NCBI RefSeq assembly: GCF_044324875.1 | Contig: NZ_CP172185.1 | Reading direction: 5' to 3' (one strand) | DNA length: 64,000 nucleotides | Source: Escherichia coli | Lineage (GTDB): Bacteria; Pseudomonadota; Gammaproteobacteria; Enterobacterales; Enterobacteriaceae | Shown: positions 31,083-46,652 of the stretch, piece by piece | How the letters are laid out: each line of letters starts with the position of its first letter | How positions within the stretch are numbered: position 1 is the stretch's first letter | Made by a program: the position numbers and the translations under genes | The notes under the pieces: model-generated | Seen by the model: only the letters and a program-made list of their open reading frames with translations | Databases searched by the model: none | What the model was told of the DNA's origin: nothing

Positions 31083-32489
31083 ATGTCCAAGCAACAGATC
31101 GGCGTCGTCGGTATGGCAGTGATGGGGCGCAACCTGGCGCTCAACATCGAAAGCCGTGGTTATACCGTCTCCGTCTTCAACCGCTCCCGCGAAAAAACTG
31201 AAGAAGTTGTTGCCGAGAACCCGGGTAAGAAACTGGTTCCTTATTACACGGTGAAAGAGTTTGTCGAGTCTCTTGAAACCCCTCGTCGCATCCTGTTAAT
31301 GGTGAAAGCAGGTGCAGGCACGGATGCTGCTATTGATTCCCTCAAACCATATCTCGATAAAGGTGACATCATCATTGATGGTGGTAACACCTTCTTCCAG
31401 GACACTATTCGTCGTAATCGTGAGCTTTCAGCAGAGGGCTTTAACTTCATCGGTACCGGTGTTTCCGGCGGTGAAGAGGGGGCGTTGAAAGGACCTTCCA
31501 TCATGCCTGGTGGGCAGAAAGAAGCCTATGAACTGGTTGCACCAATTCTGACCAAAATCGCCGCAGTAGCTGAAGACGGTGAGCCATGCGTTACCTATAT
31601 TGGTGCCGATGGCGCAGGTCACTATGTGAAGATGGTTCACAACGGTATTGAATACGGCGATATGCAGCTGATTGCTGAAGCCTATTCTCTGCTAAAAGGT
31701 GGCCTGAACCTCACCAACGAAGAACTGGCGCAGACTTTTACCGAGTGGAATAACGGTGAACTGAGCAGCTACCTGATCGACATCACCAAAGATATCTTCA
31801 CCAAAAAAGATGAAGACGGTAACTACCTGGTTGATGTGATTCTGGATGAAGCAGCAAACAAAGGTACGGGCAAATGGACCAGCCAGAGTGCGCTGGATCT
31901 CGGCGAACCGCTGTCGCTGATAACCGAGTCTGTGTTTGCACGTTATATCTCTTCTCTGAAAGATCAGCGCGTTGCCGCGTCTAAAGTTCTCTCTGGCCCG
32001 CAAGCGCAGCCAGCAGGCGACAAGGCTGAGTTCATCGAAAAAGTTCGCCGTGCGCTGTATCTGGGCAAAATCGTTTCTTACGCTCAGGGCTTCTCTCAGC
32101 TACGCGCCGCGTCTGAAGAGTACAACTGGGATCTGAACTACGGCGAAATCGCGAAGATTTTCCGTGCTGGCTGCATCATCCGTGCGCAGTTCCTGCAGAA
32201 AATCACCGATGCTTATGCCGAAGATCCGCAGATCGCTAACCTGCTGCTGGCTCCGTACTTCAAGCAAATTGCTGATGACTACCAGCAGGCGCTGCGTGAT
32301 GTCGTTGCTTATGCAGTACAAAACGGTATCCCGGTTCCGACCTTCGCCGCTGCGGTTGCCTATTACGATAGCTACCGTGCCGCTGTTCTGCCTGCGAACC
32401 TGATCCAGGCACAGCGTGACTATTTCGGTGCACATACTTATAAGCGCATTGATAAAGAAGGTGTGTTCCATACTGAATGGCTGGATTAA
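31083..32489 (+). CDS. gnd: 6-phosphogluconate dehydrogenase, decarboxylating
   Basis: 468-aa ORF; N-terminal [19 protein letters not shown]-binding motif; higher GC than the flanking O-antigen genes. Confidence 0.97.
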
Positions 32490-32515
32490 TCTGATTTAAC
32501 CAACAATAAAATTGA

Positions 32516-32548
32516 GGCCCGGCGTATATTGCACCGGGCTTTTTTTTG
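32516..32548 (+). terminator. Rho-independent terminator downstream of gnd
   Basis: GC stem ggcccgg...ccgggc followed by a run of 8 T. Confidence 0.7.
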
Positions 32549-32728
32549 CCAATTATCTTATAGACTAAATTTCACTGCTTAATATTAACTTAATAAATAT
32601 CAGCTATTCTTATAAAGAAATTCTGAATTGTTTTTCGTTGCGTTGACCATCTTACAACGTAGCGTTAAAACTTTTAACTCTTATCAGGATGCTAAAAACA
32701 TCATGATTCACAGTTAAGTTAATTCTGA

Positions 32729-33904
<1,176 letters not shown>

Positions 33905-34049
33905 CATCTTGTTATCAGGGCTATTTACGCCCTGATTGTCTTTTGTTACTTCCTCAATAATTCATTATTTTTATCACTTATCCTATAGCATTCACGAGGA
34001 TTATCGCTAAACTATGCGGACTTGGAAATTTCCGTCAGTTAGGGTAATG

Positions 34050-35027
34050 ATGAGAGTAGAAAATAATAATGTTTCTGGGCAAAACCATGACCCGGAACAG
34101 ATTGATTTGATTGATTTACTAATGCAGTTGTGGCGTGGCAAGATGACAATCATCATCTCTGTCATTGTTGCTATTGCCCTGGCTATAGGGTATCTGGCCG
34201 TTGCCAAAGAAAAGTGGACTTCCACAGCTATCGTTACTCAACCTGATGTGGGGCAAATCGCTGGCTATAACAATGCCATGAATGTTATCTATGGTCAGGC
34301 TGCACCGAAAGTGTCAGATTTGCAGGAGACGTTGATTGGTCGCTTCAGTTCTGCCTTCTCTGCATTAGCAGAAACGCTGGATAATCAGGAAGAACCAGAA
34401 AAACTTACCATCGAACCTTCTGTTAAGAACCAGCAATTACCATTGACTGTTTCTTATGTTGGGCAAACTGCAGAGGGCGCACAAATGAAGTTGGCCCAAT
34501 ACATTCAGCAAGTTGACGATAAAGTGAATCAAGAGCTAGAAAAGGATCTCAAAGACAACATTGCTCTGGGACGGAAAAACTTGCAGGACTCTTTAAGAAC
34601 GCAGGAAGTGGTCGCGCAGGAGCAGAAAGATCTGCGTATCCGTCAGATTCAGGAAGCATTGCAGTATGCGAATCAGGCGCAGGTGACAAAACCACAGGTT
34701 CAGCAGACTGAAGATGTGACGCAAGATACGTTGTTCCTTCTTGGGAGCGAAGCACTGGAGTCGATGATTAAGCATGAGGCGACCCGTCCGTTGGTGTTCT
34801 CACCAAACTACTATCAGACTCGTCAAAACCTGCTGGATATCGAAAGCTTAAAGGTTGATGATCTTGATATTCATGCTTACCGTTATGTGATGAAACCGAC
34901 GTTACCTATTCGTCGCGATAGCCCGAAAAAGGCAATTACCTTGATTCTGGCAGTGCTACTGGGTGGCATGGTTGGCGCGGGGATTGTGCTGGGGCGTAAC
35001 GCTCTACGCAATTACAACGCGAAATAA
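34050..35027 (+). CDS. wzzB: O-antigen chain-length determinant (polysaccharide co-polymerase Wzz)
   Basis: ORF 34014..35027; internal Met at ~34050 gives MRVENNNVSGQNHDPEQIDLIDLL... (~325 aa) with N- and C-terminal TM segments flanking a coiled-coil periplasmic domain. Confidence 0.9.
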   Translation: MRVENNNVSGQNHDPEQIDLIDLLMQLWRGKMTIIISVIVAIALAIGYLAVAKEKWTSTAIVTQPDVGQIAGYNNAMNVIYGQAAPKVSDLQETLIGRFSSAFSALAETLDNQEEPEKLTIEPSVKNQQLPLTVSYVGQTAEGAQMKLAQYIQQVDDKVNQELEKDLKDNIALGRKNLQDSLRTQEVVAQEQKDLRIRQIQEALQYANQAQVTKPQVQQTEDVTQDTLFLLGSEALESMIKHEATRPLVFSPNYYQTRQNLLDIESLKVDDLDIHAYRYVMKPTLPIRRDSPKKAITLILAVLLGGMVGAGIVLGRNALRNYNAK

Positions 35028-35134: not shown

Positions 35135-36421
<1,287 letters not shown>

Positions 36422-36489
36422 CGATAAGCTTGCGCATCGGGCAATGGCTACGGATGCGACTACAACATCGCATCCGGTCAGTCCGCAAC

Positions 36490-37094
36490 TCACTGATGCC
36501 GTTTGCGCAGGTTCTCAATCACCGTCGTTAAATCCAGCCCCTGATCCTGCAACAGCACCAGCAGGTGATACATCAAGTCAGATGCCTCGTTGGTCAGCTC
36601 AAAGCGGTCATGTACCGTTGCTGCCAGCGCAGTTTCCACCCCTTCTTCGCCCACTTTCTGCGCGATGCGTTTGGTGCCGCTGGCATACAGTTTGGCTGTG
36701 TAAGAGGTTTCCGGGTCGGCAGATTTACGTTCGGCGAGCAGTTGTTCCAGTTGATACAGGAACAGCCACTGGTGAGCGGTGTTGCCGAAGCAACTGCTGG
36801 TGCCTTTGTGGCAGGTCGGGCCGATGGGATTCGCCAGCACTAATAAAGTGTCGTTGTCGCAGTCCGACGCAATACTCACTACGTTGAGGAAATTACCCGA
36901 CGTTTCGCCTTTGGTCCACAGTCGCTGTTTAGTGCGCGAGAAGAAGGTAACTTTGCCACTTTCGATGGTTTTGTCCAGAGCTTCCGGGTTCATGTAGCCC
37001 AGCATTAACACTTCACCGGATACCGCGTGTTGCACAATCACCGGCATCAGTCCGTCGGTTTTTTCCCAGTCCAGTTCGCGACGTAGTTGTTCTG

Positions 37095-42623: not shown

Positions 42624-43523
42624 TCACTCCATCATCTTCTCAATCGGCAGGACCAGAATTGAACTGGCACCCAGCGCTTTCAGTTTTTCCATCGTTTCCC
42701 AGAACAGGGTTTCGCTGCTGACCATGTGCATCGCTACGCGCTGTTGGTCACCTGCCAGCGGTAGAATGGTTGGGCGTTCGGCACCTGGCAGCAGGGCGAT
42801 GACTTCATCCAGACGTTCGGTCGGTGCGTGCATCATGATGTATTTTGATTCGCGCGCCTGGATCACGCCCTGAATACGCGTCAGCAGTTTGTCGATCAGT
42901 TGCTGTTTGGATTCTTCCATTTCGCCATCGCGTTGGATCAGGCAGGCTTTCGAGCGGTAGATAACTTCGACTTCGCGCAGGCCGTTAGCTTCAAGCGTGG
43001 CACCGGTGGAAACCAGATCGCAAATCGCATCCGCCAGTCCGGCACGCGGGGCGACTTCAACAGAACCGTTCAGTAAGCAGGATTTAAAAGAGATGCCTTT
43101 CTGGTCGAGATAACGCTTGAGCAGGTGAGGATAAGAGGTGGCGATACGTTTACCGTTTAAGGAGAGCGGGCCGTCCCAGGCTTCATCAACCGGCGTTGCC
43201 AGCGAAAGGCGGCAGCCGCCGAAATCCAGACGACGCAGGGTAAAGTAGCGCGGATCTTCACCCTGGGCGCGGCGGTTAAGCAGCTCTTCTTCCAGCACGT
43301 TTTCGCCGATAATCCCAAGGTCAACCACGCCGTCCATTACCAGACCGGGAATGTCGTCGTCACGCACGCGCAGAATATCAATCGGCATGTTTTCTGCCAT
43401 CGCGATCAGGCGCTGGGTGTGAAGATTAATTTTAATGCCGCAGCGCGCCAGTAATTCGCGTGAGTCATCACTTAAACGGCCGGATTTCTGCATAGCTATG
43501 CGTAAACGAGAGTTGTCTGTCAT
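42624..43523 (-). CDS. hisG: ATP phosphoribosyltransferase
   Basis: ORF 42624..43562; start taken at the Met giving [20 protein letters not shown]... (299 aa). Confidence 0.93.
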
Positions 43524-43571
43524 TTTCTTATTCCTCTTTAAACCTGTCTGAACCGTTATCAACCGCGCAAT

Positions 43572-43606
43572 AAAAAAGCCCCCGGAAGGTGATCTTCCGG
43601 GGGCTT
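43572..43606 (-). terminator. his operon attenuator terminator
   Basis: Minus strand reads agaaagcccccggaagatcaccttccgggggcttttttatt: a GC-rich hairpin plus U-run between hisL and hisG. Confidence 0.85.
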
Positions 43607-43667
43607 TCTCATGCGTTCATGCACCACTGGAAGATCTGAATGTCTTCCAGCACACATCGCCTGAAAG

Positions 43668-43718
43668 ACTAGTCAGGATGATGGTGATGATGGTGGTGTT
43701 TAAATTGAACGCGTGTCA
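43668..43718 (-). CDS. hisL: his operon leader peptide
   Basis: Minus-strand ORF ATGACACGCGTTCAATTTAAACACCACCATCATCACCATCATCCTGACTAG encodes MTRVQFKHHHHHHHPD with seven consecutive His codons. Confidence 0.92.
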
Positions 43719-44001
43719 TAAAAGTCTCTGTGAATGTTTATTCAACTGATGTCTTTTAACCTAAACCACTTTCACGTTAGAAAGCAAGGGCTTTTTTATA
43801 TATTTTATGGCGATGGATTTGTTTAATGAATGAGCGGGGAAAGGAGGGGGCTAAGAGGACTGACCTCTAAGCTGACGGCACCAAAAATAGCGAAGCCTGG
43901 ATTTTCGTCTCACTGACAATATCTTGATCTACAAACTAATTAATAAATAGTTAATTAACGCCCATCATTGTACAATGAGCTGTACAAAAGAGGAGATTGA
44001 C

Positions 44002-44253
44002 ATGCGTACAATTAGCTACAGCGAAGCGCGTCAGAATTTGTCGGCAACAATGATGAAAGCCGTTGAAGATCATGCCCCGATCCTTATTACTCGTCAGAAT
44101 GGAGAGGCTTGTGTTCTGATGTCACTCGAAGAATACAACTCGCTGGAAGAGACGGCTTATCTGCTGCGCTCCCCCGCTAACGCCCGGAGATTGATGGACT
44201 CAATCGATAGCCTGAAATCAGGCAAAGGAACAGAAAAGGACATTATTGAGTGA
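44002..44253 (+). CDS. yefM: Type II antitoxin YefM (Phd family)
   Basis: 83-aa product [58 protein letters not shown]...; immediately followed by yoeB with a 4-nt overlap. Confidence 0.9.
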
Positions 44254-44504
44254 AACTAATCTGGTCTGAGGAATCATGGGATGATTATCTGTACTGGCAG
44301 GAAACAGATAAGCGAATTGTTAAAAAGATCAATGAACTTATCAAAGATACCCGCAGAACGCCATTTGAAGGTAAGGGGAAGCCAGAACCCCTGAAACATA
44401 ATTTGTCAGGCTTCTGGTCCCGACGCATTACAGAGGAGCACCGTCTGGTATACGCGGTTACCGACGATTCACTGCTCATTGCAGCATGTCGTTATCATTA
44501 TTGA
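44250..44504 (+). CDS. yoeB: Type II toxin YoeB (RelE-family mRNA interferase)
   Basis: 84-aa [36 protein letters not shown]...; RelE/YoeB fold signature; paired with yefM. Confidence 0.9.
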
Positions 44505-46386: not shown

Positions 46387-46473
46387 AGAAAAATTATTAT
46401 GACAAGCCTCTCATTCTCTTGTCATTTCCCCCCCATTTAGGCACAATGCGCCGCTGTCAAAAAATGACTAAAA

Positions 46474-46505
46474 ACCGACGTTTCATCAGCGTCGGTTATT
46501 TTTTG
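46474..46505 (+). terminator. Rho-independent terminator downstream of yeeY
   Basis: accgacg-tttcatcag-cgtcggt hairpin followed by a T-run. Confidence 0.6.
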
Positions 46506-46652
46506 CTTCAAACCAATCATTCATACCAAGAGGCCGGGCTTCGTACCGGATAGATATTTACTAAAAATCGACAGTTGTTGTCGCTGAGGAATCCAAAAAA
46601 ATGGGGCAATTTTTTGCTTACGCGACGGTTATCACCGTAAAGGAGAATGACC

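Follow-up and report, generated by a model that had tools for sequence, protein, structure and literature searches.

The histidine operon and its neighbours

The window analysed here, i.e. the whole stretch of 64,000 nucleotides taken from Escherichia coli (assembly GCF_044324875.1, contig NZ_CP172185.1), carries the histidine operon on its minus strand, where hisG, D, C, B, H, A, F and IE run from 43523 to 36490 in the order and with the lengths of their K-12 counterparts, all eight genes being full length. The first structural gene under the attenuator considered below is hisG (42624–43523, minus strand; NCBIfam TIGR00070). At the other end, hisIE was identified by PRK02759 and terminates with the stop codon at 36492–36490. 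On the opposite side of the leader, the yefM-yoeB type II toxin-antitoxin pair (43975–44504, plus strand) is divergent from hisL, as it is in K-12. Further Rfam matches in the window with scores above the gathering score (22958–22996, 13007–13056 and 46432–46506 on the plus strand; 17445–17612 on the minus strand) concern a JUMPstart element, an algC RNA, two REP-derived naRNA4 copies and STnc240. The JUMPstart element probably marks where the O-antigen cluster begins, the other end of which is formed by gnd, ugd and wzzB at about 31083–35027.

The leader peptide gene and the terminator hairpin

On the minus strand ahead of hisG, an open reading frame of 16 codons starts with the ATG at 43719 and ends with a TAG stop codon at 43671–43669 (43669–43719 in total). 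Its translation yields MTRVQFKHHHHHHHPD and identifies it as hisL, the name under which it is annotated in E. coli genomes (b2018 in K-12). It includes seven consecutive histidine codons (CAC CAC CAU CAU CAC CAU CAU; 43678–43698, minus strand), which would serve as the sensor for charged tRNA-His. Between hisL and hisG, the same strand contains a GC-rich terminator hairpin of 14 bp (43607–43575), in which AAAGCCCCCGGAAG (43607–43594) pairs with CUUCCGGGGGCUUU (43588–43575) across a 5-nt loop, AUCAC. The first three residues of the six-U run (43577–43572) are located inside the 3' arm of this hairpin, and a distance of 49 nt separates the U-run from the hisG ATG (43523).

A covariance-model search assigned this region to the Rfam family RF00514, His_leader, with 131.6 bits (gathering score 49; E = 1.4e-21), and the match (43693–43570, minus strand) covers the model at full length, i.e. 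positions 1–126 of 126. Moreover, the leader of 158 nt is exceptionally stable, with a minimum free energy of -68.4 kcal/mol as compared with -38.2 +/- 3.5 kcal/mol for 200 dinucleotide shuffles, none of which was as stable as the real leader (z = -8.63). The claim of the earlier note that the his attenuator is intact, with a seven-histidine leader peptide and a terminator, is thus borne out by translation, hairpin, Rfam match and fold z-score, and the span it had proposed, 43563–43720, correctly encloses both parts, beginning a single base ahead of the ATG and extending slightly (a few bases) beyond the U-run. At the gathering threshold, the Rfam models of the leuL, pheL, thrL and ilvL leaders gave no match in the element.

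A scan of 43300–44100 for consensus promoters and terminators reported neither hisLp nor the attenuator hairpin. The hairpin is missed because A-U and G-U pairs carry its stem into the U-run, such that no T-rich tail is left to be scored, and hisLp is missed because its -10 hexamer, TAGGTT, fails the 4-of-6 rule of the scan. We therefore regard this silence as a tool artefact and reject it as evidence that an attenuator is absent.

Could the hairpin and U-run simply be the ordinary terminator of a neighbouring gene, with the histidine-rich reading frame having arisen by chance and the two lacking any regulatory link? The one point in favour of such a reading is that every GC-rich hairpin with a U-run behind it is a potential terminator. 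The sole upstream neighbours, however, are yefM and yoeB, which are encoded by the other strand and point away from the leader, and thus nothing upstream on the minus strand needs a terminator here. A chance frame would also have to account for seven consecutive histidine codons in an open reading frame of 16 codons directly upstream of the histidine operon, and for a full-length covariance-model match and a conservation that extends to 76 loci in the Enterobacteriaceae (see below). With the Rfam match, this conservation and the identity to K-12 all speaking against it, we consider this explanation refuted, its probability being negligible.

Putative promoter, pause site and leader RNA

Upstream of hisL, within the stretch that is identical to K-12, the sequences TTGCTT (43787–43782) and TAGGTT (43763–43758) can be read on the minus strand, which are the putative -35 and -10 hexamers of hisLp. 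The E. coli leader RNA has been described as extending over 180 nt from hisLp to the attenuator and as encoding a peptide of 16 residues with seven contiguous histidines (PMC10989985). Counting back this length from the U-run, where the leader RNA would end (43572–43570), places the putative transcription start near 43750, a position that fits the two hexamers and gives a leader RNA of approximately 180 nt.

Within the leader, the sequence GAUGUGUGCU, followed by G, agrees with the consensus for transcriptional pausing, i.e. G-10 Y-1 G+1, where G43658 corresponds to position -10, U43649 to -1 and G43648 to +1. We assume that the his pause is located exactly at U43649/G43648 (43648–43649, minus strand), the position reportedly given by Chan and Landick 1993. 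The hisL pause with its G-10 Y-1 G+1 consensus depends on an upstream hairpin, which has been tested by mutation, as well as on NusA (PMC9291695).

Six segments and five alternative helices

The leader RNA can be divided into six segments, A to F, which engage in five helices on the minus strand (energies were computed for each helix in isolation). Three of these belong to both the Rfam consensus structure and the minimum free energy fold. Helix A:B (arms 43686–43673 and 43664–43651) has 12 bp and -12.2 kcal/mol, and its inner stem of 5 bp is the his pause hairpin; helix C:D (43650–43643 and 43634–43627) has 8 bp and -11.0 kcal/mol; helix E:F, the intrinsic terminator or attenuator (43572–43607 including the U-run), is the hairpin of 14 bp described above (arms 43607–43594 and 43588–43575), with -27.6 kcal/mol. 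The other two are the alternatives, i.e. helix B:C (43669–43661 and 43650–43642; 9 bp, -11.8 kcal/mol), which excludes both A:B and C:D, and the antiterminator helix D:E (43636–43629 and 43598–43591; 8 bp, -9.9 kcal/mol), which takes up GGAAG of the 5' terminator arm together with the first three bases of the terminator loop. Segments B, C, D and E each use the same nucleotides in two helices, and therefore neighbouring helices are mutually exclusive. The same set, i.e. AB, CD and EF stem-loops with BC and DE as alternatives, has been described for the E. coli leader (PMC10989985).

The earlier note had expected mutually exclusive pairings of the type 1:2, 2:3 and 3:4. Exclusive pairings are indeed present, but the scheme is A:B, B:C, C:D, D:E and E:F; a trp-type architecture of four segments and three helices was not found in this leader.

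Ribosome position and the choice of conformer

Folding of 43563–43720, which had been suggested as a way to reveal alternative antiterminator and terminator structures, produced the terminator conformer, but the antiterminator appeared only in nascent folds without the F arm. When the ribosome footprint was masked at codons 8–16 in the full-length leader, equilibrium folding kept the E:F terminator in every case. Since the energy of E:F (-27.6 kcal/mol) amounts to almost three times that of D:E (-9.9 kcal/mol), antitermination is not demonstrable on thermodynamic grounds and must be kinetic. Equilibrium folding of the full leader, being the wrong approach to a kinetic switch, was therefore set aside as a test of switching, and 3'-truncated nascent folds were used instead.

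In these folds, the transcript lacking the F arm responds to the ribosome. Without a ribosome it adopts A:B and C:D and leaves E unpaired; when the A site of the ribosome is on histidine codon 9, 11 or 13, it adopts B:C and D:E. In stepwise folding, the first of the competing helices to form in the stalled state is B:C, at an emerged length of 82–90 nt, and with the ribosome at the stop codon it is C:D, with 97–125 nt emerged. Forcing B:C and D:E in the full-length RNA leaves zero E:F pairs. The four helices upstream of the terminator are nearly equal in energy, and for this reason the predicted equilibrium fold switches at certain lengths: in the stalled state it changes to C:D at 97–125 nt, and in the stop-codon state with 133 nt emerged, D:E beats C:D by about 2.4 kcal/mol. 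Thus, the classical outcomes would rely on persistence of the helix that forms first, which is consistent with a kinetic switch.

Conservation of the leader in E. coli and the Enterobacteriaceae

Alignment to K-12 MG1655 showed 100% identity over 43811–43528, a stretch that includes hisL with its presumed promoter, every pairing segment and the terminator. The first difference on the minus strand is found at 43527, with G in the window and C in K-12. Being located 4 nt ahead of the hisG start codon, it lies in the ribosome-binding region and outside of the attenuator, and it is the sole change from the promoter to hisG. The element of 158 nt is present in 5,423 of the 5,426 complete E. coli genomes, with an identity of at least 99% in 4,887 of the 5,426. 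The annotation of these genomes lists it as 'His leader region' and hisL, with hisL in 5,423 of 5,426 genomes.

Beyond the species, searching one genome per species for the pattern His7-Pro-Asp-stop yielded 76 Enterobacteriaceae loci, which correspond to 57 distinct leaders. As the pattern demanded at least seven histidines followed by Pro-Asp-stop, this set is confined to the Enterobacteriaceae and biased to close relatives, and the histidine codon counts, i.e. seven in 56 of the 57 distinct leaders and ten in the remaining one, have to be read with this lower limit in mind. The exception, from Trabulsiella odontotermitis (L058:1190-1348), has ten consecutive histidines owing to a 9-nt insertion in the histidine run and is otherwise unchanged.

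Across the 57 leaders, paired cells amount to 100% for A:B, B:C and C:D, 98.9% for D:E and 99.6% for E:F, and both conformations are pairable in 99.5–99.8% of the cells. Compensatory covariation could not be used as an argument in either direction: among these 57 near-invariant leaders, no pair in either conformation showed a two-sided change, and 500 of 500 shuffles reached the observed values. Since the stems are nearly invariant, covariation is uninformative, being compatible with the model but no proof of it. An indirect signal comes from the distribution of invariant positions. In the non-coding part of the 57 leaders, 53 of 66 columns within helices are invariant, as against 10 of 30 columns outside of any helix (Fisher p = 1.6e-5). 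The sole frequent substitution in a stem, an A-to-G change at alignment column 86 that is seen in 17 leaders, keeps pairing in both conformations, turning a U-A pair of B:C into U-G and an A-U pair of C:D into G-U. Likewise, changes in the first three bases of the terminator loop, which are part of D:E, are mostly to wobble-compatible bases.

Conservation also bears on a proposal made for the K-12 leader (PMC10989985), which is base-for-base the same as that in the window. According to this proposal, the leader is a DnaA-dependent RNA switch, in which DnaA at 'rDnaA boxes' in front of the histidine codons and between C:D and E:F (PMC10989985) blocks the ribosome as well as D:E and favours termination, such that DnaA, and not the charging of tRNA-His alone, sets attenuation. 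In favour of it, the linker that joins D to E, GUGGUGCAUGAACGCA, shows more conservation than a purely passive spacer requires; extended D:E pairing in the nascent folds, however, can explain part of this conservation. The proposal comes from a single study, each box deviates from the DnaA consensus by two mismatches (PMC10989985), and it invokes the same AB, CD and EF helices and the same BC and DE alternatives, so that DnaA would add an extra layer to classical attenuation and not replace it. That DnaA governs attenuation at this leader seems unlikely to us.

An IS621-family element downstream of hisIE

At the distal end of the operon, an IS621-family (IS110) element of 1,280 bp occupies 36416–35137 on the minus strand, i.e. 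the strand of the his genes. Its recombinase gene (36224–35244, minus strand; 326 amino acids) matches NCBIfam NF033542 with E = 6e-76, and related genomes have it annotated as IS621 family. A guess from length that this reading frame might encode InsH of IS5 was rejected on the basis of this match to an IS110-family transposase and the IS621 annotation. The flanks read ATCGGGC-CT/TGTATTATCC ... ACAGTAT-CT/ACTATTCG, and removal of the element in silico, keeping one CT core, leaves 291 nt that match the hisIE-wzzB spacer of many strains, E. coli 042 among them, with 100% identity, from which it follows that the boundaries are precise. The element has a REP-type hairpin as its target, and an insertion at this site occurs in only 3 of the 5,426 complete genomes.

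The insertion separates hisIE from the convergent hisI/wzzB terminator (about 35073–35030). In the spacer of 73 nt that remains between hisIE and the element (36417–36489, minus strand), there are two REP-type hairpins (about 36477–36450 and 36442–36419), and neither a canonical terminator nor a U-run was found; the T-rich tail of one weak terminator-like match at this spacer consists of the first bases of the element. With REP hairpins but no U-run between hisIE and the insertion, it is plausible, as judged from this arrangement, that his transcripts read into the element.

The earlier note had regarded the attenuator as relevant to such read-through. This holds for transcripts that start at hisLp, which the attenuator would gate: with an intact attenuator, read-through of this origin would be low under ample histidine and increase in starvation. 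It does not extend to other transcripts, as internal his promoters in E. coli and Salmonella would feed the distal operon independently of the attenuator. A further step, i.e. that his transcripts released by the attenuator enter the element and make expression of bridge RNA and recombinase, and hence mobility, responsive to histidine starvation, appears quite improbable. The orientation of IS621-type insertions is set by the target sequence, and the strand shared by the element and the his genes therefore need not reflect selection.

Discussion

Overall, our data show that the element upstream of hisG in the window comprises a histidine-rich leader peptide gene and an RNA whose segments can pair in two mutually exclusive conformations, with the nascent transcript folding differently according to the position of the ribosome. 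It is almost certainly the classical ribosome-mediated transcription attenuator of the E. coli hisLGDCBHAFI operon. The reading as classical attenuation control, which had originally been offered on the basis of the leader peptide and terminator, is the right one, since the window has the leader peptide, the terminator and the alternative pairings, and since its leader does not differ in sequence from the experimentally characterised one of K-12, for which attenuation has been documented (PMC10989985, PMC9291695). From this identity we infer that the operon in the window is under the same control, and the 100% match of the leader also leads us to expect that read-through would rise when charged tRNA-His drops.

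Along the lines of the classical model, RNA polymerase would start at hisLp near 43750, transcribe hisL and, after formation of the A:B hairpin, pause at U43649 until a ribosome begins to translate the leader. With plentiful charged tRNA-His, this ribosome would cross the seven histidine codons and reach the stop codon. In this situation, or if no ribosome is present at all, C:D would pair and leave E free, E:F would form and transcription would end in the U-run, with release of a leader RNA of about 180 nt. With charged tRNA-His being scarce, the ribosome would stall on the histidine codons (43698–43678) and cover segment A, upon which B:C and D:E would form, the 5' terminator arm would be held while the polymerase crosses the U-run, and transcription would proceed into hisG. 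The his operon is not known to have a dedicated repressor.

This attenuator has long been described and is not a new finding; it counts among the founding examples of transcription attenuation, and as it is the same here as in the reference strain, its presence matters little as a discovery. Its practical value lies in providing an annotation anchor, which fixes the strand, the start and the regulation of the his operon in the window.

Comparison with known attenuators

The closest known systems are the his leaders of E. coli K-12 and Salmonella Typhimurium, which have the same peptide with its run of seven histidines, the same pause hairpin and pause consensus, the same five helices and terminator, and the same site upstream of hisG; between the K-12 leader and the window there are zero differences inside the element. 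With the trp attenuator (trpL), the his leader shares the principle that the position of a ribosome on tandem regulatory codons decides whether an antiterminator or an intrinsic terminator forms, and also the use of a pause hairpin that couples transcription to translation. The two differ in architecture, with trp having four segments, three pairings (1:2, 2:3, 3:4) and two Trp codons, whereas his uses six segments in five pairings and carries seven histidine codons. The leuL, pheL, thrL and ilvL leaders follow the same logic of ribosome-mediated attenuation as his, with other regulatory codons and other helices, and these enterobacterial amino-acid leaders also have pause sites (PMC9291695).
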